A DNA stretch of 64,000 nt from contig NC_043021.1 of the NCBI RefSeq assembly GCF_006345805.1, positions 28,334,001 through 28,398,000 on the forward strand, read 5' to 3'. This stretch comes from Octopus sinensis. Its lineage: Eukaryota. How positions within the stretch are numbered: position 1 is the first letter of the stretch; each line of letters opens with the position of its first letter. Of the stretch, positions 8,428 through 63,154 are shown one piece after another. Under the pieces are notes generated by a model. It did not search any database. It was not told where the DNA came from and saw only the letters and a list, made by a program, of their open reading frames with translations. The translations under genes and the position numbers were made by a program.

Positions 8428-8527
8428 NNNNNNNNNNNNNNNNNNNNNNNNNNNNNNNNNNNNNNNNNNNNNNNNNNNNNNNNNNNNNNNNNNNNNNNNN
8501 NNNNNNNNNNNNNNNNNNNNNNNNNNN
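8428..8527. other. Assembly gap (100 N)
   Basis: Run of n characters. Confidence 1.
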
Positions 8528-8724: not shown

Positions 8725-8885
8725 ACATTTTTTTCTCTCCTTGTTTTCTGTGTTGCTTTCTGTAGAAGAGCGTAGGCTCGAAATGTAAAAGACTTTTTCT
8801 ATTCCTGAGCGTTATACTAATACATCTGCTTGTTTTTTACACCACCTGTCATCGTCTTTTGTTGATTTTTTGTAAACTCTCCCTG
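8725..8885 (+). mobile_element. Solo 3' terminal repeat of the Penelope-like family at 13250-16405, with HHR-like motif
   Basis: ttCTGTAGAagagcgtaggctcGAAATGTAaaagacttt matches 16282-16320. Confidence 0.75.
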
Positions 8886-8887
8886 TA

Positions 8888-9894
8888 TCTTTATATATAT
8901 AAAACTGAGAATGTGTGTCTGTCTGTGTGTTTCCCTAAAACTTGAGAACTACACAACCAATTTCATTCAAACTTTGCACATGCCTTACTTAGGGTCCATG
9001 TGGTTTCATGGGCAAAAAAAAAGTTCAACTTCTTGCCTAGAGCGAGCCCATAGCAATATCATATCTTCTCTACTATTTCAGTATTACGCGTTAAAAGTGA
9101 AACAAAAACATTTCTCTATTTTATGTCAGATACTTTCACTTTAACAATAAAAAATAATAATAACAATTGAATTATATGTAGTAAGTAATAATTAAAATCA
9201 AACTAAAGTAGAATTTAATCGTAACATTAAAAAAAAATTAAAATAGCAATTGGTATAAAATTACATCAATGACTTGAACTTGAATAAGTGGTTTCACATG
9301 AATGGGAATAAAATTAGCGTGCAGAAATGGAATAGACCAGATGGATAATAAAAAATTAAATTAAAGAAAAAACTATTGTCTATAAAGTATACAATGTAGA
9401 GAAAAAAGAAGATTTGAACACATGGAGGAAAGCACCTTCGAAAAGTGTCTTGGTGCGACTATGAAAGCCATCTAATCAGAGGCGTAAATTCTTCACAATA
9501 GAAGCAAGTTTCAAGTCAAGGGAGTACTCGACTCGAACTTGCAAATTGGAAATATTTTATTTAAATACCTTTATATATAGGACGTAGGACGTCCCGGAAA
9601 AAAATTTAAAATGCCCCTCCCCGAAGTAGAGGTAGGCTGGATTGTAGCCACACTTCTATATAAGAGGGAGGACAAGATACAATTGATCGAAATTACAAGA
9701 GACGGGCTAACAATTCCAGTCTGTTATATATTTTGAGTATTGTTATCACTAGCGATATCAAGATATAACTTTCTATTTTGTATTTTATGTGTAGATGTAG
9801 ATATATAGATGTACATGTAATATGTACACATATATATACACATATATACATGCACTAGCACTATGACCCGGCAACGACGGGTCTTTAATGCTAG
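8888..9894 (+). mobile_element. Non-autonomous Helitron
   Basis: a|TCtttatatatataaaa 5' end, (GTCT/GT) subterminal tract, 3' hairpin gacccg-gcaacga-cgggtc then CTAG|t; inserted at A/T without TSD. Confidence 0.75.
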
Positions 9895-9926
<32 letters not shown>

Positions 9927-24294: not shown

Positions 24295-24690
24295 CATCTT
24301 TTACTTGTTTCAGTCATTAGATTGCGGCCATACTGGAGTACCGCCTTCAAGGTTTTCACCGAAAAGATCTCCCCTAGTAATTATATATTAATTATATATG
24401 TCTGATCGGTATTCTATTGGTCAATCCTTTTCGGATCACTAAGTTATGGTGTCGCAAACAAAGCAGGATCTGTTGTCAAGCGGATGGGCGGTGGGGGGAT
24501 GGGGTAAAATACAGACGCGAAGACACACATGCACTCACATATATGCATATGTTTCAATTTCACACAATCTCTGTCTACCAAATTCACTCACATGGCATTT
24601 GTCGGCCCGGGGCTAAAGGAGGAAGACATTTGCCCAAGAAGCCGTGCAATGAGACTGAACCGGAAACCACATAATTGCAAACGAGCTTCG
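24295..24690 (-). mobile_element. SINE family A, diverged
   Basis: ttttacttgtttcagtcattagattgcggccatactggagtaccgcc ... gactgaaccggaaaccac. Confidence 0.8.
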
Positions 24691-24811
24691 TAAATTTTCA
24701 AAATTAATTTCAACAAACTTAGAGTATTTGAACGGAAATACTTTAGCAAAGTGGTTAAAAAAAAAAAAACCTTATAGGCGCAGGAGTGGCTGGGTAAGTA
24801 GCTTGCTTACC

Positions 24812-26814
24812 CGCACATGCGCGTTGGTGTTGCTTATTACAGAGAACCGAGGTGGACGTGAGTGTGTTGGCTCTTGTCCAATACTGAACTGAAAGAAAAC
24901 ATCAGCATAAGATGGAGGTGGATTTGTTTTCGTTTGAGCTGGGTGTAATTTGTCAAATAGTAATTGTTTGTTTGTTGATAAATTTCGCCCAGCTCCGTGG
25001 CAATTCTGCCTGCTGTCGGCGGCTGCTGCTTGTTGTTTTGTTGTATTGGGGGGAAAAGGGGTGGGGGTATATCCTCGCTCGAACTTACTGGATTTTGCCA
25101 TTGAAACTTGTTGGATTACCATTGAACCTACGAAGTTGGCCAGGAGTACCTGTTGGCCATTGATGTTTGCTGTGTGAACCGGTTTTTCTTTTCTCTATCT
25201 TTCTATGTTTCTTTTTGGAACTGTTTTTGCGTTTCTTTTGGATTTTATTTTTTATTCATTTTTTGAACTGACTTATTTATTTCTTTTTGGACTTCTTGTT
25301 AACTTATTTGGACTTTCCTTTTTCTTTTGAACTGACTTTTAACATGGCAAAGGCAAAAAAGTGCCTTACAATGGGAGGTGGTCCCATCTAAGTAATGGAT
25401 TACAAACCGTGAGAGAAGAACGGTGGTACGACGGATCTATTCTAGGTCACGTGATGCCATCGCCCTCCTCGACAAGGGTATCATTAATAAAGAGCTGGCA
25501 AAATATTTGCCAGCCAAAAATTATTATATAACCAGGGGTGTCAAATACGCCACAGCGTGGCTGCTTTTTGACACCCCTGAGGAGGCTTGCACTGTGGCAG
25601 GCTAGCCCTTGGAAGGGGAGGAGATTTTTGCTTGTTCCCACATATCGTGGGAAGAAGGTAATAAAGGCCTGGGTAAGTGGTCTGCCCCCGGGCACCGAAG
25701 CGGGGTGGATTGCAGATGCCATCCGGAGGGGCCTGGGGAATAGTGGGCCCAGGCTCTTAAATATAGAGATAAAGCCTGCGGTCGACTGGGAGCAAAGGGT
25801 ACAAAGGCGACTTTGACCCTATGGACTCCAGTGGCAGCGGGTGAAATGACTTTCCTTGACTTTTTGAAAATGGATGGCTCAAGGTATCCAGTGATACTTG
25901 AGGGTCGCCCCACCCAAGTGTCACTCGTGCCTGGAGTTAGGCCACATTAAGAAGGACTGCCCCGGGGCCGTCCGCTCTCCCATTGCTGGGAGAAACAGAG
26001 GAAGTCGTTGAGGCATCGGCCTCAACGAGAATGAAAAGAAAGGTGAGAAACAATGGTTGCTCACCAACAGAGGCGCAGGTTGCGGGAGACGCGGAAGACC
26101 CCCCCCCCCGAGTGTGTCACCGGAGGCCCCGACTCCCGCAACCGTAAGAAGGAAAAAGAGGAGGAAGAGAAACGGGAGACGGTCGGCGGATGTCGCTGTG
26201 CCGCCGACCGAACCCGATGCTACTCCAGTTGAAGGTGCAGCACTGGAGCGAGAGGTTCTGTCAGTTGGAATTGTACCACTGACAGAGCAGGCTGAGGCCT
26301 CTTCCCGTGAAGAGGAGTTGAAACCCGTCATTTTCTATCTCAGGGGAGGTCCTGTCGAGTAGTGCTTGGACGGTCTTCCAGGCCGAGAACGATTGTCCAG
26401 GCTGGCCTCCGCAGGTGGCTGCAGAGGTCATGAGTCAGAAGGAGCTGTTCCAGGTCTTGGTGACCTGTAATAAGGAAGATTTTACTTTCCTCTTTCCGGG
26501 CCCCTACCTGCAGGCGGCGGGTCATTTGCTTGGGGGCTCCGATGAGGAGGATTGATCTTATAGATTGTGTGTATATTGAACAATTTATTGTATATATTTG
26601 TAAAGGACTGTTAAGTCCAATAATTGTAAAAACTGTCGTTGCTGCTTGAAAAAAAAAACAATGTTTTAGAGAAGCAGAAAATCGGCGGACGTTTTCTGCC
26701 CTCTCTCATCAATATCATCCTTGTTTCATCATTCACCTCATCAATGTACATGTCCAGCCTGCAAGCTACTCTTTGTAATGCCTTTATATCAAATCTTAAT
26801 GAAATAATGAAATA
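24812..26814 (+). mobile_element. ORF1-only non-autonomous non-LTR retroelement (Tx1/L1-type, HAL1-like), element 1
   Basis: Perfect 16-bp TSD at 24796-24811 and 26815-26830; T-rich 5' UTR; decayed gag-like ORF with CCHC knuckle; A-rich tail taatgaaataatgaaata; no EN/RT motifs seen. Confidence 0.85.
25343..26560 (+). pseudogene. ORF1/gag-like protein: RRM-like repeats, CX2CX4HX4C knuckle, basic then acidic tail; frameshifted
   Basis: RIYSRSRDAIALLDKGIINKELAKYLPAKNYYITRGVKYATAWLLFDTPEEA..LVPTYRGKKVIKAWVSGLPPGTEAGWIADAI..YPVILEGRP..CHSCLELGHIKKDC (about 25919-25960)..RRKKRRKR. Confidence 0.8.
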
Positions 26815-27635
26815 AAGTAGCTTGCTTACCAACCACATGGTTCCGGGTTCCGTCTCACTGCGTGGCACCTTGGGCATGTGTCTTCTACTATAACCTCGGG
26901 CCGACCAAAGCCTTGTGAGTGGATTTGATAGACGGAAACTGAAAGAAGCTTTCGTATATATGTATACATATGTATGTGTGTGTATATGTTTGTGTGTCTG
27001 TGTTTGTACCCCCAACATCGCTTGACAACCGATGCTGGTGTGTTTACGTCCCCATAACTTAGCGGTTCGGCAAAAAAGACCTATAGAATAAGAACTAGGC
27101 TTAGAAAGAATAAGGGATGGGGTCGGTCTGCTCAACTAAAGGTTGTGCTCTTGCAAGGCCGCAGTGAAATAACTGAAACAAGTAAAATAGTAAAAGAGTA
27201 TCGAAAATAATGAATTAATAAATGAACGAATGGCTAAATGATAGAATGATAGAATGATAGAATGATAGAATAGACGGAGCTGTCGTTGATTAATGTTATA
27301 AGTTAAACATCTAAATTCAAATGATACAAACTATCAAAATTAGCGAATTAACAAATCGAATAGAATGGATGCTGGAATAAAGAATATGTAACCGAGGATT
27401 CATAGAACAAGTAAATTAAATGACACTTTACACGCTTGTCACCGCAGAGTAACCTTGGAGAAAACGATTCATACCACAACTAAAAATGTATGGAAAAAGA
27501 ACACCCAAAAATCTACACCACGCATCGGAAACTACGAAGAAAGCCAATAGCTTCGATGGAGCTGTTATCATATATAATATATAAGTCGGTGCTCTTTGAC
27601 TGAAACAAGTAAAAGAATATACATACATACATACA

Positions 27636-29141: not shown

Positions 29142-30441
29142 TATGTAATATAACTCAGTCTACATATATACCCACATGGTGTGGGTGCGTACCCACAATA
29201 CAACATATATATATACATATGAGTGCATATACTCACACTCCTATACATATAAAAATATACATTTACATAATGATATAAATAAATAATATAAATTAGTAAA
29301 CATATATATGTGTTCCACACTCAATGTCTCAGTTTTTCGACTTAATACTGTGATATTAAACATACGCAAATTAATACCTAGATGCAAATATACATAGTCA
29401 ATAGTACATTATATTACTTCATAATAGTTTCTAAAGTGTCATTAAAGTTAGTATCATTATCGTTGTCATTACAATTAATGTTATCATTGTTATCATTCAT
29501 AATTTTATTAATAACTCTTACATTATGATCCAGAGCTGAATATATGTCCGTGTTCCAGTTAATAATTTTCCTTATGGCATAAATACACTATTGGATTTGA
29601 ATTTAAAATTATCATTATCTTCCTCACGGTTGGTCAATTCAGAACCGCCCGACCTCCACCACACCGTACAAGCAAAACATACACATCCACATCTAACCCT
29701 AAACCCATACATCCACACAGAGAATCACACACACATGTACACACGCATGAATACACCCCGACACATCTTTACAATAAATTGGAGAGTGCGTGTCTGTCAT
29801 CGTATGGCTTATAGACATATCAGTACAGGCAGCAGTGTCTAACACTAACACACACACTCACACGCACATCCGCATATACGCATAAATATTAATACACTTT
29901 CCTATACTGTGTCAGGGAACTTTCGCACACACACATATATATATATATATATTTTTTAAATATATATCTGCGCACTCATACGTACAAATAAAACCCATAT
30001 TTATATCTACCCATGAATGAATATTCGCATATACATATATACACATCCAAGTACGCACCTGCGTGCTTATATGTGTAATAAAAACATACATCCGTACCTC
30101 CACCCACGATCATACCTATATGTACAAAAACATATATACTTACACATACACATTTTCACACACCTACAGGGGTTAACCCTACAGTCTCTTATGTGGTGAT
30201 TTAATAAAGTATGTGATTGAGTATTATCTGGTAATTGATATTTGATTTAGATGTATTTCTCCATTTTCTTATCTTGTATATATATATATGTATATACATA
30301 CGACAGGCTTCTTTCAGTTTCTGTCAACCAAATCCACTCACAAGGCTTTGGTCGGCCCGAGGCTATAGTAAAAGACAGTTGCCCAAGGGGCCACGCAGTG
30401 GGACTGAACCCGGAACCATGTGGTTGGGAAGCAAGCTTTTT

Positions 30442-32195
30442 TATTGAGTGAAATTTGCCATGAATTCCTGCCATAGAGGTGACAGCACAAGTTGGGGACA
30501 AAAAAAAATAGAATGGAAAGAGTGAATTAATATAATGAAATATGAAATGAAGCCGTTCGGCTCCACCTCCGAGCGACTTCATTGAACCTGTTCATACCAC
30601 CATTATAAACTAGTTTATAATGTTTTTTTTCTATTATTATTAGCGACGCCTAATTACCACACTTCCGAAGAATGTTTACATTATATTCTTTTAAAATATC
30701 CTGAAAACTTACTTGTTTCGGCATTGAACTGGTTTCGAATTTCTTGACCCACCAATTATAGTCCTGATTTACCTCATGGTCCTTCACTTCCAACATATAT
30801 TCAGGGTCTGCCATTACACAGCGAATGTACTCGGGCACCCTTTCACTCCTGATACAGCCACTTTTATAGCATTATCCCACAAGTCTATCTTTGTCATATA
30901 GTTCTTCGTTTCGCCATTGTACAATATAAGGGCGAGGGTGGGGAAATTTGGGGCTCCTGCGTGCTTGTGTTTGTCTTCATGTCAGGTGCGGCATAATGAG
31001 GGCTGGTGTCTGTAGGAGGTGGTTAGGGGTAAAGTGGGTGTGGGTGTGGGTGCGAGTCGGGTGGGTGTGAGTGGGAATCGGATGGGAGTCGGGTGGGGAT
31101 GGGATGGGGTTCGTCATTTTCAGTGTGTGCCTCTTTTCTCATTGCTTTCTTTCTCCCAGCTGTTTCCCATTCATTGTCCATCTCCTCTTCTTCGACGGTA
31201 GTACTGGTCTTTGTCTGTGGTGCCACTTCACTCTCCCTTTTCACAACCTCCACGGGCAGTGGAGCACCAGCCACTTTCTGACTCTCTTGTCTTTCCTTAG
31301 CTTCCTCAGGTGGTGGAGAACAATCTGCTCTAATGTGGCTTTTTAGGCCACATTTATAGTACCGCGAAATCCTTCCATCCACTCTGACTTTCAGTGTTGC
31401 GTCTCCGACCGTAATAGTCTCTACCATATTTTCGATATCTTCCACGGCAACCTGTACCACCATATCGAGGCTTTGTCCTTGCCAGTTCCTGTGGGATTTT
31501 CTAGTGGCCTGGAGGACCACCACCTTCTCCTCCTTACTTAACAGTATGGCAGCTACCAGCCAGGCTACATCCACTTCAGGGGGGTATGTCTTTTACCCTA
31601 ACACTGGAAGCACATCTCTCACGGTATACAGAGAGAAGCACCACTTCATCAGTTCTCAACTATGTTGCTGAGGGCAGCCTGGCAGTAGCTACCTCCCGAA
31701 ATCGCTCCTCCACTCTCCCAAATTTTCTTCCTCTGGCAAAGTAGGAAATTCCTGGCCAGACTAGTTTAAGCGCCCTTTCTACTTGAGCCGTCGTCAGGAT
31801 TTCAGTCTTCCGAGCTGCTACCGAGTACGTTCTGTAAATTATTTCCTTTAACCCTTCTTTGGGAGGGGAACACCTTTACATTGTACCCCTCCCTTTTAAT
31901 CATTTCCTTGAATTTGCTTGTATCCTCCAGCCACATGTCTTCCCTTCTTTCTTTGTTGCCTCTGCATAATTTTTAGACTCCATCCTCTTCAAACACTCCA
32001 CCATTTCTTCCTCAGATGACACACAGTCTGAAGAAGGATAGTTCAGAAAGTCTGAAGAAGAAGAATTCAAAACTTCACAACTCCTCGCCCGACGCCTCTC
32101 CATTAAACAAGAGGGAAAATGTTGCACCGCCAAGGCAGCAAACAAAAGACGGTGTTACACTCAAAACCAACAATTCGACTGACAAACGCTATACC
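30442..32195 (-). mobile_element. ORF1-only non-autonomous non-LTR retroelement (Tx1/L1-type, HAL1-like), element 2
   Basis: Imperfect about 15-16-bp TSD (gggaagcaagcttttt 30426-30441 / ggtagcaagcttctt 32196-32210); decayed gag-like ORF; 3' end ..cactcaataa; no EN/RT motifs seen. Confidence 0.8.
30650..32103 (-). pseudogene. ORF1/gag-like protein homologous to 25343-26560; frameshifted
   Basis: NYAEATKK..YRTYSVAARKTEILTTAQVERALKLVWPGISYFARGRKFGRVEERF..VLLSVYRERCASSVRVKDIP(fs)PEVDVAWLVAAI..LKVRVDGRISRYYKCGLKSHIRADC..EWETAGRKK. Confidence 0.8.
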
Positions 32196-32463
32196 GGTAG
32201 CAAGCTTCTTAGCACACAGCCACTCTTGCGCTTATATATGTATGTGTATATATATATACACACATTTATAAATGCATGTGTGCTAATTTACGTGCATACC
32301 TCTCCTGTTATGTAACTATAAATATTCATATGTATATAAGTATATGTGTACATATATATATATATACTAATACAATTGTTTGTTTGTATTCCACCTGCCT
32401 TCGTCTTTTGTTTATTTCCGTAAACCTGCCTTCGTCTTTTGTCTATTTTCATAAAGCTTCCCG

Positions 32464-36133: not shown

Positions 36134-39100
36134 TAAATCCTTAAATCCTTAAAAATGTTTTAGCCCGAAGGCCGCGGCCATGCTGGGGCACCACCGCTGA
36201 ATGAGCTACACTAATTTGTGAATCCACCTCTGATACGTGGCACTTGATCAACAAGGGAGTTCGATGCTGCTGCCCGCATCCGCGTCTCCTGTCGTGAGGT
36301 AGGTTCATATGGGACTCCCGACAAGAAGAGATCCAGTTTAGTTTTAAAGAAACCCACATCCACACCATGTAAGTCTCTCAGGCATTTAGGGAGGATGTTA
36401 AAGAGCTGTGGTCCTCTGAAACCCAAGCTGTTGCAGTATCTGGACCTGTATTTTGATGGTGATGTTGGAATCCTTGGCACCATGCAGTGGTGCCCCGTTC
36501 TGCGGTTGGAGTAACTTTGAATGCCAAAGTTTGGGACAAGACCCTCCAGGATTTTCCAGATGTATATCACCACATATCTCTCCCGCCTCCGCTCTAGGGA
36601 GAAGAGGTTTAATACCTTCAGTCTTTCCCAGTAGCTGATATTTTGCATTGAGACGATTTTCTTTGTGTAGCTTCTCTGAATTGCTTCGAGTTCTGTTGTT
36701 AGTTTTATATTGTGTGGTGACCAAAGTTGGGAGCAGTAGTCCAAGCGGCTGAGGACGAATGTTTTCCATAGGACCATCAGTGTCTCCTTCTCTCTTGTTC
36801 TGAAAGTTCGGAGAATCCATCCAGCTAGCTGTCTGCATTTTATCACCAGATTAGCAATATGCATTTGGAAAGATGCATCATTGCTCATGTCAATGCCCAG
36901 GTCACGCACTGATTTTGACTCAGGGATTGCAATTCTTCCTGGGCCAGTGTATCCAGTCTTCACGTCATTTACCTTTGTGTGCCAGTAACGCAGGGCCTGG
37001 AACTTACCTGCATTAAACTGCATGTTGTTGTCCTAAGCCCACCTGTATATTGTGTCCAGCTCATGTTGCAGATGCGCAATATTTTCAGGGTTTTGTATTG
37101 CGTGGGAGACTTTTGTGTCATCTGCATAGCTAGCAAGGGTGGTCATCGTAGCAACTGAAGGCATGTCTGAAAGGGCCACTATGAACATCAGTGGCCCCAA
37201 GACAGTGCCCTGTGGGACACCGCTTGTTATTTCCGTTTCCTTGGAGGTGGCTCTATTGCTCACAACTACCTGTTTTCTGTCTTTTAGGAAGTTGTGCAGC
37301 CACTCTCCAAGTTTCCCGCCTATGCCGAGACCACGCAGTTTGTGACAGATCATACCATGGTCGACTTTATCAAAGGCTTTTGCAATGTCGAGATATATTA
37401 CATCCACATTTGAGCCATTTAGTAGCTGTTTCAACACCCAGTCATAGTGTTGCAGGAGCTGTGTTAGGCAGCCTCTACCTGGTCGAAATCCATGTTGGGT
37501 GTCAGACAGCAACTCATTTTCTTCAAGGAACATGATTAGTTTCTTACGGACTATTCGTTCCATGACTTTGCTGATGTGTGAGGTCAGAGAGATAGGCCTA
37601 TAATTTTTAGCATCTGCTCTGCTACCTCCCTTATGGGTAGGGCATATTACCCCCTCTTTCAATTTGACTGGGAGCTTACCACATGCAAGAAAGCTCTGAA
37701 AAAGAATCTGTAGCGGTTTTGCAAGGGCTCGTTTGCACGATTTGAGAAGGATCGCTGGGAATCCATCAGGTCCAGCAGCTGAGTTTGTGTCAATCTCATC
37801 AATGGCTAGTGTGATATCATCATCTTCGATGTTGATGTACTCAATTTTTGTCTCTTTGGCCGCAGGTAAAGTGGCAAAGAATTCTTCTGGGTTGTTTACT
37901 TGCCTGTGTCCTAGAGATGTAGTAAACACACTTTGGAACTGTTCGTTCAGTATTTCACTTATCCTCGTGGGATTTCCTGTGAGAGAGCCATCTTTTTGAA
38001 AGAGAGGTCCTATTCTCTGGTGCACTGTGGCTGTCTCTTTGGCAAACTTAAAGAAAGCTTTAGGGTTTGATTTTCTATTTTCTATTACCCAAGCTTCTTT
38101 ATCTGCTCTCTCCTTTTCATGGGACTGATGTAGACTTTTCTCAGTTTCCATTAGCATTCTTTCGAGCCGAGACTTCTCACCACTTTTGGTGTGCTTGCTC
38201 AGGCGGTTTGCAATCCTTGTCCGTTGTCTCATAAGAATCCTCCTTTCTCTAGGGATCCTGTTTTTGTTCTTGTGTGTGCTGGCCCTGCACACTGGGACAT
38301 ATTTGTCACATATGGCTTGTATTATGGACATGAAGTGTTTGTGTTTCATGTTTATGTCCGGTGTGGAGAGACATTCAGGCCAATCCTGTTTGAGGATATC
38401 TTTCTCAATCAACTTCCAGTTGGCTTTATGAAAGTTTAAGTTGGAGAGATGGTGGGTGCTTCGTATAGGCTGTGAGCCTACGGGGGCTTTTGTTCCATAC
38501 ATAGACAACTCTATTATGTTGTGATCCGAGATCATTGTCGGCATCGCATTAACATTATGGATAATATCCATATTGTTTGTGAAGCAGAGATCCAGTATAT
38601 TATCTGCCCTTGTTGGTTGCAGAACTATTTGCTCCATGAAAGAGGCATTTGTGAGATGGAGCAGGGACTCCACCTGTGCCTGCTGATGGTGTGTCATCCC
38701 TGGGAGCATCTGCCCCACCAGGCCATTCCACATTGGGGAGGTTAAAATCACCCATGAAGAATACACTGTTGTGCTGTTCAAGGTTGGTGAGGACTTCTCC
38801 TATTTTTGTTAGGCAGTCTTCAAACATGCCTGAGTGTTTTGGGGCATCTGGTGGGCGATATGTAGTGCATATGACGATATTCAGTTGCCTTATGTGTACA
38901 ATTTGAGTTTCACATACTGAGTTTGAATATGACAGCAGGACCTGGGGCGTGAGGTCATCTCGGATGTACATTGCAATTCCACCATGGCTCCTCCCTTTTC
39001 TATCTGTGCGTATGACTGCATATTGCGGCATGTGTATTTCTGCATCACCTATATCGGGTCCAAGATGCGTTTCTGTGAGTGCCATGCATATAGCTTGATT

Positions 39101-39180
39101 GCATGTCACAAGGTCTCTCAGGAATGAAATTTTTTTTTACAGTTTCCGCGCAGCAGCCCTCCTACATTCAGTAGAAAGAA
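36134..39180 (-). mobile_element. CR1-group LINE, 5'-truncated at the start of ORF2 (APE endonuclease + reverse transcriptase), inserted in (TA)n
   Basis: APE motifs ALTETH, GGIAMY, YRPP, GDFNLP, NILDL, ISDH; RT motifs AAGPDG, NYRPISLTS, QHGFRPGR, YLDIAKAFDKVDH, GVPQGTVLGP, YADD, DLG; short 3' UTR with stem-loop and 8-bp terminal repeat (TTTAAGGA)2. Confidence 0.95.
36211..39175 (-). pseudogene. LINE ORF2 (EN-RT) with one in-frame TAG (37033-37035), a frameshift near 38720 and another near 39130
   Basis: ORF-track segments 38600-39109, 37033-38781 and 36211-37023 join into one EN-RT protein. Confidence 0.9.
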
Positions 39181-39240: not shown

Positions 39241-39525
39241 TATATATTAGAAGAAATGAGGTAATCAGAAGATCGGATGGTTTATATTTACAGATATTTA
39301 TTTATATATTACATTTTTTATATATATATATCATATCAGTTAGATTATTAGCGCTTTCTCCCATTCTAGTGGGGTTTTCAAATCAAAATAAGTTCCTTTG
39401 TGAGGAATCTTAATCATTTTATAGAGTTTCGTAGTGGTGGGGAGGAATATAAGACAGTACAAGAGGGTGATGTGGATGAGGAGAAAGTGAGAGAGAGAAC
39501 ATGTGTGTATGTGTATGTGTATGTT

Positions 39526-39561
<36 letters not shown>

Positions 39562-39739
39562 CACCAATATTAAATGTTCTACTATATTATATTGTAAATC
39601 GAACGACACCTCTTTCAGGAGGTATATGGAAAAATATTTCATAGCTAAGTTCTCCCCCAAATTAAATGGCTGAAACTTTTCTCATCATACATTGAAGGAC
39701 AAATCTTTAGATTTACAATATAATATAGTAGAACATTTA

Positions 39740-39771
<32 letters not shown>

Positions 39772-40894
39772 TGTTGGCATCCTTTTTGTCTCGGGAGACA
39801 ATGGAGTTGCGCATAAAGTAGTCTAGTCCGGCTTTTACATTTCATGTCCTGATATATTTCCTGCTGTGGCTGTGTAGTCCTATCCTGGACAAACACACCC
39901 TCTATTATTTTTGTAATTTACTTGATCTTTACTTGCCAATTGTCATTCTAATTTTAACCTTCCTATGATATGCAATTTTCAAGATGGTTGTATGTGATGT
40001 CTTGATTGATGGTTCATTTGAATCGATAGAAGGTGTTTTTTCTAATATTTCATGTATAAGCATGTGATATATATATAGTGACATTGAAGGACACATCTTT
40101 CGATTTACAATCTAATATAGTAGAACATTTAGTATATGTCTGAATATGTATATATATATGTGTGGTGTGTGTGTATATATTGCCTGTTATATACATTATA
40201 TTATTTTTATAATTTACTTATCTTTACTTTTTATTGTCACTTAATTTTAACTTTCCAATGATATACAATTTTCAAGATGGTGTAATTTAGTTGTTCATTT
40301 TGAACCGATAAAAGTTTTTTTTCAAATATTTCATGTATAAGCGTGTATATATATATATAGAGAGAAATTCGGGGTGAGTACTTGATAATTATAAGCACCT
40401 GTGTATACCGTTTGGTGGTGTAGGTGGTGGAGTAAATTGATCAAAATAAAAACATGATGCGAAGGATTCAGCGGTACATATGTTTCGGGCCTTTATTAGA
40501 CAGATTTATAACAATGCATAATGTATGTCTGTGGCCTTCTTCAGCCGCGCACAACAGCTTCCACAAGGACATGTGTTACATCAAAAATTCTTGGTTGGGG
40601 ATGCAAATCCTCTCATTCGCGTACGACATAATGCGGCAGCAGCATGGAATTGAAGCGTCCATCTCTTTCTTGGACGCTTCAATTCTATGCTGTTGCCGCA
40701 TTATGTCGTACGTGAATGAGAGGATTTGCATCCCCAACCAAGAATTTTTGATGTAACACATGTCCGTGGAAGCTGTTGTGCGCGGCTGAATGAAGAAGGC
40801 CACAGACATACATTATGCATTGTTATAAATCTGTCTAATAAAGGCCCGAAACATATGTACCGCTGAATCCTTCGCATCATGTTTATATATATAT

Positions 40895-40969
<75 letters not shown>

Positions 40970-41384
40970 GTATAAATATCAACACAATTTTTTTACCCTC
41001 CTCCTTATTTTTTTTCTTTTTTGTCTCTCTCCCCTTCTCTAAACACACAGACACATGCACACGCACACACACACACGCACACACACACACACAAACACAC
41101 ACGGACACACACACAGACACACCTCCACAAAACGATCATAAAAAGTGGAATGAATTCTTAAACCCAAAAAGACATTTAACCATTCTCACAATGATAAAAG
41201 GAAATATAATTTATGGCCTACCTCCCCGCCACCACACACTCAGTGACACTGTGAAGTGGTCAAAGCTGAAATTCTTAGAACCCCCCCCTGGAGTCAATAT
41301 TCTGTCCAGCAGACCAAAAAAAAATTATTTCCTCTCTTCCCTCTCCCTTCCCCTCTTTCTCTTTAGCTCTCACCTCAGATACAA

Positions 41385-41416
<32 letters not shown>

Positions 41417-41672
41417 ATACACACATGTTCTCTCTCTCTCACATTCTCCTCATCCACCTCACCCTCTTGTACTGTGTTATTCCTCCCCACCACTACGAAG
41501 CTCTATCAAATGATTAAAATTCCCCACAAAGGAACTTATTTTGATTTGAAAACCCCACTAGAATGGGAGAAAGCGATCATAATCTAAGTGATATGATATA
41601 TATATAAAAAATGTAATATATAAATAAATATCTGTAAATATAAACCATCCGATCTTCTGATTACCTCATTTC

Positions 41673-41866: not shown

Positions 41867-42252
41867 AAATGAAAGAATGGAGTTAAAGGACGAATTAACA
41901 AAATTCCTTTATTTTATTTTCGACATATGTTTCGAAGGCTACATATTCCTAATTTCGAAGGAATAAGGGGTGCATTATGCCGCCTTCTCATCAGGAAAAA
42001 CAAGGAACTTATGTCAGCATCAAGATGCACAAAAACTTTTAGATGGCTGCCCACACGGAGCCTATAGCGATATTATCTAAAAGTTTTTGTGCATCTTGAT
42101 GCTGACATAAGTTCCTTGTTTTTCCAGATGAGAAGGCGGCACAATGCACCCCTTATTCCTTCGAAATTAGGAATATGTAGCCTTCGAAACATATGTCGAA
42201 AATAAAATAAAGGAATTTTGTTAATTCGTCGTTCAACTCCATTCTTTCATTT
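41867..42252. mobile_element. Near-perfect palindrome (about 178-bp arms, 30-nt spacer) with HHR in each arm
   Basis: Minus arm ttttc-CTGATGA-gaaggc...gccttc-GAAAC-atat-GTC-gaaaa (41917-41999); plus arm has CAGATGA. Confidence 0.85.
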
Positions 42253-60962: not shown

Positions 60963-63154
60963 TATATATATATATATGTATATATATATGTATATATATA
61001 TATATATATATATTTATAATGATATATATATATATAAGATGGATACGTAGAGGAGAATACATAATGATTGACAATAGAAAAGGGAGTGAGAAGTAGGAGT
61101 AATAATAATGGTACAGGTACAGAGTGGAAGGATTAGAGAAAAAGAGGGAGAGAGGGGGGAGTCAGATGATGCGTAGATCCGCAAGTTGCACATGAGTGAA
61201 GGAAGAAAGAGTAAAAATACTTGGAGGTATATGTTGGGTGAGGAGGAAAGATGATTCTTTCTCCGCATCAGACTCCATACTTAGGAGTAAATCTTGGCAA
61301 TGCTGTTTCAACTCATAGTTGAAACCACATCACTTTCAAAGCGCGCCCATCTACAAGGCATCGTGCATTCACAGCACAACGTCAACGACCCCGTAGGGCA
61401 GAACATTAGGTGGAGGACATTTATGCTTTCTGAAATAAGGAAAATAAACAAATGCAACAAAGTGAAGCAAACGATTTTATTGAACAGTTTATTTATTCCC
61501 ATATAAGGAAATGTAATTTATATTTCAAGTTTCTATCGGTTTATTTGATCTATGTGTACATACGTACGTTGTGTCTGAGTCCGCACGCTTGTATGAGTGT
61601 GTGTGCGTGTGTGCGTTTTATTTTATGTGAATACACGTTTGAACAAGTATATTTTTCAAAGGTCGCATGTATTCAAAACAAGCATAAACATATAGTTACA
61701 TATATATACAAATACGAACGTTAATGCATTCGCACTCATATGCATACACAAACACACGTACAAACATGCTTTTGCATACATACATATGTATATGTGTATG
61801 TGTATATATATATATATATATAATATATATATATATATATACACATACTCACACATTCAATAAAATCCACAAAATACCTCATGAAATACAGCCACCTAGC
61901 GCTTCCTGGCCAAAATATCAATTTATTTTCCCACCTGTCAAGCTATTAATAACACGATGCTTTAGTAATATCCTGGTTACTAAACCGTCTTGTTGTTTTT
62001 AACAGCTTGATACAAGGCTAATTCGATTACTATTTCGGTTAGGAAGCCCTGAGTGTTCGCATTTCACAAGGTTTTGATTATAACGATATCATTATTCTCT
62101 TAACTGATCGTGTGCTCTAATACTTGGGGAAAATCATACCACACAATCACACTTGCGCCTACGTACATACATACATACATACATACATACATACATACAT
62201 ACATACATACAAACATACGTGTGTCCATCCGTACGTATGGTATTCAGCGCATTTGTGGGAGTTACATATCTATTTTGAAATGCCAGTTTGTTTAAGCTCC
62301 ACCTGGCTTAACGTTTCGTAAATGCGTACGACACGTCCATCTCGTCTGACCAAACTTGAGCCTTGCGAAGCTGACTAAAACTAATAACGTATATATCGTT
62401 TCCTTTTAAACAATTCTTCACGTTGTAGCTCCTTGCGTTTATGTTTTCTCAATGCCCCCCCCCCCTTGTGATCCAATGTGGAATCCCTATAAGTAGTCTG
62501 GAAACATACTTGAAATAAATTTCAAATCTCTTCTCCATGACACCTCTCACACCTTTAAAAGAAGGACATAAAGTATCTCTGAAAAGACAGGATGATCGTG
62601 GATGAAATTCTTTCATTATAATTTTGCCCTTTCCTGAGCTGACCAGGGGTTCAACGACAAACTTCTTTCTTTAATGAGCCAATGGAAATGGATTTCATGT
62701 ACGTTGTTGTTGCTGTTTTCTTCATTCACAATATACAGCTGAGAAAACAGAGCTACAATTAAAACATTTCAAACGTGACCATGCAATGTTTTACCTTTAT
62801 ACAATAATCTCAGGAATACGTTTTCCAAGTCTTCTTCTCTAAGACTGATGAAGTTATGATCTGAGGTATAACTGGTTTCTGTTTCTTGTTGCTCAAGCGA
62901 CCATGTAGTTTTTTACTTCATGAGCAAGGCCTACGTGATTACATCATTGTGGTCGCTCTTAATGCTATACATACATACATACATGCATGCATACATACAT
63001 ACATACATACATACATACATTCATTCATTCATACATACATATGCTCGAAATGAGGAGTAGATAGACAGCCGGCAACTGATGAAGGGTCCTTCCTCTGTGG
63101 TTACTTATCCTGTTTTCCATTTTCTTCTCTCGTTGTTTACGTATATATTATATT

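Follow-up and report, generated by a model that had tools for sequence, protein, structure and literature searches.

How does a retroelement copy that has kept a 5' untranslated region (UTR), a first open reading frame (ORF1), and a 3' tail, and that has no second open reading frame (ORF2), come to lie as a unit inside another repeat? The question is raised by an insert, here called element 1, in a stretch of 64,000 nucleotides of Octopus sinensis DNA (NCBI RefSeq assembly GCF_006345805.1, contig NC_043021.1, positions 28,334,001 to 28,398,000 of the forward strand). "The window" below means this whole stretch, and positions are counted from its first base. We conclude that element 1 is a real, dead ORF1-only retroelement copy. 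A second ORF1-only insert, element 2, lies 3.6 kb from it and interrupts another copy of the same short interspersed element (SINE) at the same base. This double hit on the SINE head is a more informative feature than those pointed out in a first-pass annotation, which a model had made from the letters of the window.

Two ORF1-only inserts at one base of a SINE

An identical 16-mer occurs at 24796-24811 and 26815-26830 (both on the plus strand) and can be extended on neither side. It encloses an insert of 2,003 bp that is single-copy within the window, and the perfect 16-bp target-site duplication (TSD) and the insert length given in the first-pass annotation were both confirmed. Element 1 is flanked by the two halves of a ~400-bp repeat, a SINE that is abundant in the window: the 5' head with the A-box-like part at 24777-24811 (+), which has a 3-nt deletion compared to other copies, and the remainder from the B-box-like part onward at 26815-27221 (+). 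Excision of element 1 together with one TSD copy restores an intact SINE head, and in empty sites the head abuts position 26815 directly. Because the head and the remainder rebuild one intact SINE when the 16-mer is counted once, this is a genuine TSD. Its effective length is 14-16 bp since the last two A of the AATAAA at the 3' junction belong to the TSD.

Between the two TSD copies, element 1 runs on the plus strand. It begins with a 5' UTR (24812-25343) whose second half is T-rich, the T content being 41% over 24812-25344 and 56% over 25150-25344, in agreement with the T-rich leader described earlier. Next comes a decayed gag-like ORF1 in pieces of three frames (25344-26555), for which the first ATG and the last stop are taken as the ends, followed by an AT-rich stretch (26556-26658) up to an internal A10 (26649-26658) and by a 3' tail module (26659-26814). 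The module ends in two TAATGAAA units and then AATA before the TSD. The tail had been annotated as A-rich; its terminal repeat units are indeed present, whereas AATAAA does not lie wholly inside the insert and the 3' junction lacks a poly(A) run, the sole A run being the internal A10. No endonuclease or reverse transcriptase (RT) match was obtained with the 6 ORF-region pieces of element 1 (searched against Pfam) or with its 6 stop-free 3' pieces. Between the last ORF stop (26553) and the right TSD copy there are only ~260 nt, and therefore no room for ORF2, whose absence had been claimed. The further claim that this is not a 5'-truncated long interspersed element (LINE) is supported as well, as the 5' UTR, the ORF1 remnant, the tail, and the TSD are all there. 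The first bases of element 1 (CGCACATG) look like the continuation of the SINE (AACCACATG, window 24785-24820), which might reflect either templated bases at the 5' junction or a TSD that is longer but mutated. Together with the 3-nt deletion of the host copy, these bases extend the inverted repeat of the target into a hairpin (z -2.8; seen post hoc).

Element 2 (30442-32195, minus strand, 1,754 bp), an insert of another family, splits a second SINE copy at the identical SINE base and in the identical orientation (SINE sense orientation). On one side lies the SINE head (32196-32232, -) with the left TSD copy (32196-32210, 15 nt), and on the other the matched host SINE remainder (30282-30441, -) with the degenerate right TSD copy (30426-30441, 16 nt). 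The TSD is degenerate, 15/16 nt in length, and in register with that of element 1. The layout is also the same: a 5' region, a decayed ORF1, an internal A run (A8, 30623-30630), and a ~180-nt tail ending in AATA plus A's. The longest stop-free ORF1 piece (31026-31592, -) encodes 189 aa, with Tyr in place of the first knuckle Cys, and no endonuclease or RT remnant was found in element 2. At the DNA level the two elements show no similarity (best blastn E=0.43), and their tails have no common sequence beyond the TSD. Elements 1 and 2 are considered independent insertion events because they lack DNA similarity; the crude chance that a further independent insert would share both base and orientation is 2e-4. 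Thus far both filled SINE sites (2/2) hold ORF1-only inserts and none holds an ORF2 fragment. A perfect 22-nt palindrome is located at 30601-30622, directly after the A8 run in the tail of element 2; a conserved tail structure received no support (z -1.07 and -0.95).

The host SINE is short, non-coding, and dispersed, with copies 89-95% alike over 140 nt. SINE-like sequence accounts for 4,498 of the 64,000 bases (7% of the window), and the SINE depth in the sequencing runs described below is 6e6-5e7. An empty copy carries A-box-like and B-box-like motifs in its head, as judged by pattern, and the insertion base falls between these two parts; the head gave no Rfam tRNA match and ARAGORN reported 0 genes. 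Nine SINE copies in the window have the target site (7 empty, 2 filled), a count that leaves out one diverged SINE-like head at 62159 (-). This diverged head breaks off near the target site, and no 3' half of it was found in the window. Four further window sites hold the 16-mer with 1-2 mismatches, and the target is the SINE head, not a unique sequence. In each of four sequencing runs, ~1,500-2,300 contigs run leftwards from 26815 into the SINE head, as expected of empty sites. An older SINE relative, ~68-82% alike and in opposite orientation, lies just upstream of the host copy of element 1 (24300-24669). OR1, OR2, OK, and Twitch are names in use for octopus SINEs. OR2 is named as an octopus SINE in PMC4758252.

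The target had been described as quasi-palindromic. An inverted repeat (GGTAAG...CTTACC) does exist at the element 1 target, whereas the element 2 target has no perfect repeat. A palindrome or hairpin as the target signal was rejected: two empty sites fold no better than shuffled sequences (z -0.37 and -0.20).

Could the nesting have arisen with no targeting at all, by chance in a very abundant SINE, or by hitchhiking of one SINE-plus-insert unit? The large share of SINE-like sequence, the small number of filled sites (n=2), and a third ORF1-family fragment (9565-9703) lying outside any SINE are compatible with such an origin. We consider it very improbable, since the base, the orientation, and the TSD length are equal in two inserts without DNA similarity, at the crude chance given above, and since hitchhiking cannot yield two unrelated inserts.

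The ORF1 remnant and its protein family

The ORF1 of element 1 contains 4 in-frame stops (25393, 25603, 26009, and 26360), and its homologous stretch has at least 3 frame changes (near 25625, 25803, and 25912). A CCHC motif, CHSCLELGHIKKDC, is found at 25919-25960 (+), where Pfam zf-CCHC matches with E=4.4e-5, above the family cut-off, and a basic stretch RRKKRRKR, resembling a nuclear localization signal by sequence motif, is found at 26147-26170 (+). The gag-like ORF of the first-pass annotation is thus partly upheld: the knuckle and the basic stretch are where they were said to be, but the frame is not a single continuous one. Upstream of the knuckle, a region at 25396-25625 (+) probably corresponds to a first RNA recognition motif (RRM)-like domain, by homology to the related protein P0057 (residues 148-222), by a further match at E=0.004, and by the model of another relative, P0042. 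A second beta/alpha (RRM/ferredoxin-like) domain is predicted at 25631-25911 (+), where a profile built from 55 relatives scored 15.7 bits for 25610-25741, compared to at most 2.2 bits in 600 shuffled frames; within this domain the piece 25804-25911 is assigned purely by motif likeness. No alignment of the piece 25744-25947 with the relative P0104 was obtained. A C-terminal ORF1 domain common to the family had been suspected by eye and was dropped, as it had no BLAST support among 16 relatives; because of this the 3' end of the element 1 ORF is inferred.

The relatives were collected with a 101-aa piece of element 2, which found 147 proteins (E up to 0.001). Among 10 that were looked up, 6 are proteins of Octopus bimaculoides, O. 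vulgaris, or O. sinensis and 4 are given without organism. Element 1 is matched by 24 of the 147 without composition correction (best E 9e-10, 21% identity over 276 columns) and by 17 with default statistics. The best full-length relatives are 21-24% identical to element 1 and 27-43% identical to element 2. Judged by these sequence comparisons, the ORF1s of both elements belong to one RRM-RRM-zinc-knuckle family, with element 1 as a distant member. Word-indexed protein searches with the element 2 piece (against longer proteins) and with an element 1 piece (against longer ones and those near its length) returned nothing and are weak negatives; a PDB sequence search gave only knuckle and low-complexity matches.

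The model of P0042, calculated from 78 sequences, has a pLDDT of 82.5 and shows two beta/alpha domains plus the knuckle. Foldseek returned tandem-RRM proteins at low TM-scores. In VIA-align, the first domain resembled the La RRM (Z 9.1, rmsd 2.6, 82 aligned residues) and the second resembled ACT/ferredoxin-like folds (Z about 8). L1 ORF1p is not among the fold matches listed for this model, which does not exclude a likeness. Pfam zf-CCHC was detected in 23 of the 78 relatives, and Transposase_22 is not among the best 25 of 31 Pfam families. As far as the model of a relative can be transferred, ORF1 would therefore be of the RRM plus zf-CCHC type found in the Tx1 group, a type that is not exclusive to Tx1. 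PMC5203782 calls this combination type I ORF1 and describes it as fitting the Tx1 clade in animals other than mammals. A putative Tx1/L1 origin fits both the ORF1 type and the targeting.

Some observations on the family are added here. ZCCHC3-like clusters in the ESM Atlas (score 0.90) provide a lead; the best 25 of 31 Pfam families include no ZCCHC3 family. P0017, an O. vulgaris protein with the source name "EPM2A-interacting 1-like", is a member of the ORF1 family, and the name is probably a misannotation. The third, frameshifted ORF1-family fragment (9565-9703, +; 21.6 bits) lies within about 8885-9895, a segment whose ends (hairpin plus CTAGT) resemble those of a non-autonomous Helitron. 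The gene model P0070 combines an ORF1 of the same family with Helitron helicase domains.

Copies in sequencing runs and the mode of movement

Fifteen listed sequencing runs contain part of the insert, none with half of its words or more, and the best four (X1-X4) were analysed. Element 1 proved to be multi-copy in 4/4 runs, with 30 of 30 bins covered and as many as 48 contigs over a single site of the ORF; the possibility of a single-copy sequence, on which the first-pass annotation would have given up its proposal, is thereby removed. The median depth divided by the single-copy depth was 11-20 at 3 sites of the 5' UTR, 17-24 at 29 sites of the ORF, and 200-330 at 4 sites of the tail, ratios of contig depth that are not equal to copy numbers. 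The tail (last ~160 nt) is ~10x deeper than the body. The stop at 26360 is absent from most other contigs, and the extra bases at 25625 and 25912 are absent from many. Among 27 listed ORF differences between element 1 and other copies (from the 40 of 420 differences that were listed), 7 are synonymous and 7.3 would be expected by chance. The differences of this copy look neutral, and its decay appears to have come after insertion.

We regard it as probable, with some reserve, that element 1 is a dead copy of a HAL1 (half-L1)-like non-autonomous family that was moved in trans by the ORF2 of a SINE-targeting L1/Tx1 element. An intact master copy would be transcribed and would make its own ORF1 RNA chaperone, while ORF2 (endonuclease plus RT) would be borrowed from an autonomous, site-specific L1/Tx1-type LINE. 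The borrowed enzyme would nick the bottom strand where the TSD begins on the left, and the freed TT end could pair with the 3' terminal A's of the RNA. The RNA would then be copied by target-primed reverse transcription, which is an established mechanism, and the top strand would be cut 16 nt further on. The ~160-nt tail is likely the recognition module, common to the partner or to sister families, and the abundant SINE would serve as a harmless landing site. Candidates for the autonomous partner exist in octopus in principle, given that O. vulgaris has 80 families of L1-Tx1 LINEs, 13 of them recently active (PMC13282606). What was examined of that paper contains nothing on target sites or ORF1-only forms.

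Several observations weigh against this reading, in addition to the fact that targeting rests on two filled sites within this window and that the fragment at 9565-9703 lies outside any SINE. Element 1 has no poly(A) tail, no autonomous partner was found, and the RT-bearing LINE of the window (36211-39136) has a tail in common with neither element. Tandem RRMs are common folds, so that ORF1 does not fix the clade, and the searches brought up no intact protein from the family of element 1 itself (0 of 147 at >=50% identity over 30 aa). In the sequencing runs, a contig of 10-20 copies ends at 26617-26625 in all four. The depth at 26641/26647 is 0, 4.6, 160, and 48-54 across the runs, i.e., 0-4 copies, which is the lowest of 40 listed sites in three of the four runs and the second lowest in X3. 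A record of ~1.8-2.0 kb in X1, X3, and X4 matches 26019-26255 and is then unlike element 1 for 1.6-1.8 kb; one X1 record likewise departs from the alignment after 25910, and a few records leave it for 0.8-1.8 kb. The joints and loose ends listed for the runs are those of the SINE, with 316 joints and 2,329 loose ends beyond those listed. As to the join of body and tail itself, one X2 contig with ~13 copies' depth appears to span about 26537-26625, and three variant-bearing X3 contigs appear to span 26610 to at least 26684, both estimated from distances to the contig end. The X2 and X3 contigs would therefore give a gapless path from ORF1 to the tail, yet the depth of the body-tail join is 0-4 copies.

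The same data bear on two other origins of the inserts. Both could be internally deleted copies, or small subfamilies, of full-length SINE-targeting Tx1/L1 LINEs. ORF2 would have been lost, perhaps at the internal A run, as they inserted or later, and the surplus tail copies would be 5'-truncated LINE ends. This is unlikely in our view. The step and dip in depth at the A10 run, the multi-copy contigs ending at 26617-26625, and the records departing from the alignment for >1.5 kb are all in its favor; however, neither of the two filled sites retains any ORF2 remnant, both elements have the same layout, and the three X3 contigs cross the ORF1-to-tail join. Moreover, 5'-truncated ORF2 ends should dominate among the fragments left by ordinary LINEs, yet the filled sites are ORF1-only in 2/2 cases.

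The second origin, to which we give slightly less credence than to deletion, is a template-switch chimera: RT would start on the 3' end (the tail) of an abundant site-specific LINE RNA and jump to the poly(A) of another transcript, either ORF1-only or prematurely polyadenylated, whose poly(A) end would be the A10 or A8 run. In both elements an A run followed by C lies between ORF1 and the 156-180-nt tail, the depth step sits at the A run, and the ORF1-to-tail join is rare, all of which would agree with such a jump. Template-switch chimeras of small nuclear RNA (snRNA) and L1 fragments are known and provide a precedent (PMC4494074). On the other hand, at least 3 distinct X3 contigs have the same join, whereas independent chimeras should vary in it; contigs can break at this place simply through graph branching and differences in the length of the A run, and depth also falls almost as low within the ORF (25970).

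Movement in trans of a HAL1-like family remains our preferred reading. If it is true, the target choice would be set by the borrowed ORF2 and not by the passenger, as unrelated families share one SINE base. The elements would then provide a natural test of which features of RNA tail and DNA the enzyme reads, and of the reason for a passenger to retain an ORF1 of its own. One class of gene models in octopus, named "CCHC-type domain", would also be explained as transposon ORF1s. More tentatively, and with some doubt, octopus may harbor a guild of deeply diverged ORF1-only elements without ORF2 that are all delivered to one base of a young, very abundant tRNA-type SINE by a common site-specific endonuclease, which possibly first targeted the parent tRNA gene. 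In that case the SINE would act as a landing pad throughout the genome, and the short tail would be an address label that can be swapped.

The remaining features of the window are given for completeness. A decayed LINE at 36140-39160 (-), presumably CR1-like, contains endonuclease and RT pieces (Pfam RVT_1 E=4.6e-26) and ends in AAGGATTT repeats beside a TA run. It was rejected as the partner since it has no ends in common with the elements and terminates in these short tandem repeats. Two long inverted repeats, one at 41867-42252 (178-nt arms, 98% complementary, 30 nt apart) and one at 39285-41642 (165-nt arms, 87% complementary, 2 kb apart), are possible miniature inverted-repeat transposable elements or DNA-transposon ends. 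The window is very microsatellite-rich and has an assembly gap of 100 N at 8428-8527. DNA pattern scans of metagenome, prokaryote genome, and viral contig sequences came back empty, and a related-locus scan of metagenomes gave 225 candidates with 0 confirmed.

Relation to known retroelements

LINE derivatives with ORF1 only and Tx1 elements with a specific target are known separately; their combination was not found in print, which does not establish that it is absent from print. HeT-A of Drosophila telomeres is gag-only, targeted, and dependent on the RT of another element. It differs from elements 1 and 2 in being telomeric, in its long UTRs, in belonging to a different clade, and in having no known TSD. 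A literature search that excluded Repbase, Dfam, subscription papers, and the Zenodo library of PMC13282606 found no publication on a SINE-targeting Tx1 or an ORF1-only family in cephalopods.

HAL1 of mammals is a non-autonomous LINE derivative that codes only for ORF1 and has several independent origins (PMC5753468), and in being an ORF1-only, non-autonomous LINE derivative element 1 resembles it. Both elements show some features of this class, namely 5' UTR, ORF1, and 3' end without ORF2, inserted as a unit with a TSD. Unlike HAL1, whose ORF1 is of the Transposase_22 type, element 1 has an RRM plus CCHC (type I) ORF1 (PMC5203782); it also has no poly(A) tail, a fixed target site, and an invertebrate host. 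Element 1 is thus not a HAL1 in the strict sense, given its CCHC ORF1 and the lack of terminal poly(A) (it ends in AATA before the TSD).

With regard to the target, non-LTR elements in general are known to insert into tRNA genes and other transposable elements (PMC8869645). Target-preferring elements of the Tx1 clade include the crocodilian Tx1-Mar LINEs with their SINEU passengers, Xenopus Tx1L, and Keno, Kibi, and Koshi (PMC4494074). Like elements 1 and 2, the Tx1-Mar/SINEU group combines set places in another repeat with non-autonomous passengers, and the expected TSD of SINEU-3 is 16 nt. The targets named for these Tx1-clade elements in PMC4494074 are DNA transposons, long terminal repeat (LTR) elements, snRNA and 5S genes, satellites, and microsatellites, as opposed to the tRNA-type SINE head found here, and the passengers described there are non-coding whereas elements 1 and 2 carry ORF1. 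A Tx1-type target preference with a TSD of fixed length is seen in 2/2 full elements, both at one SINE base with a TSD of 15-16 nt, in what is a small sample.

A close parallel is TRE5-A.2 of Dictyostelium, which like elements 1 and 2 has kept ORF1, has largely deleted ORF2, and has a tRNA-gene-related target (PMC3159450). It is moved in trans by the full-length element via a short 3' C-module (PMC3159450), and by analogy the tail of element 1 is likely the enzyme's address. TRE5-A inserts ~50 bp upstream of tRNA genes through a contact between ORF1 and TFIIIB (PMC3159450), whereas elements 1 and 2 lie at a fixed sequence within a tRNA-like head. TRE5-A.2 also has a cognate full-length element, and none was found for elements 1 and 2. 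On these analogies we lean toward the view that elements 1 and 2 work as HAL1 or TRE5-A.2 do and would have been carried by a targeting enzyme of the Tx1 type.

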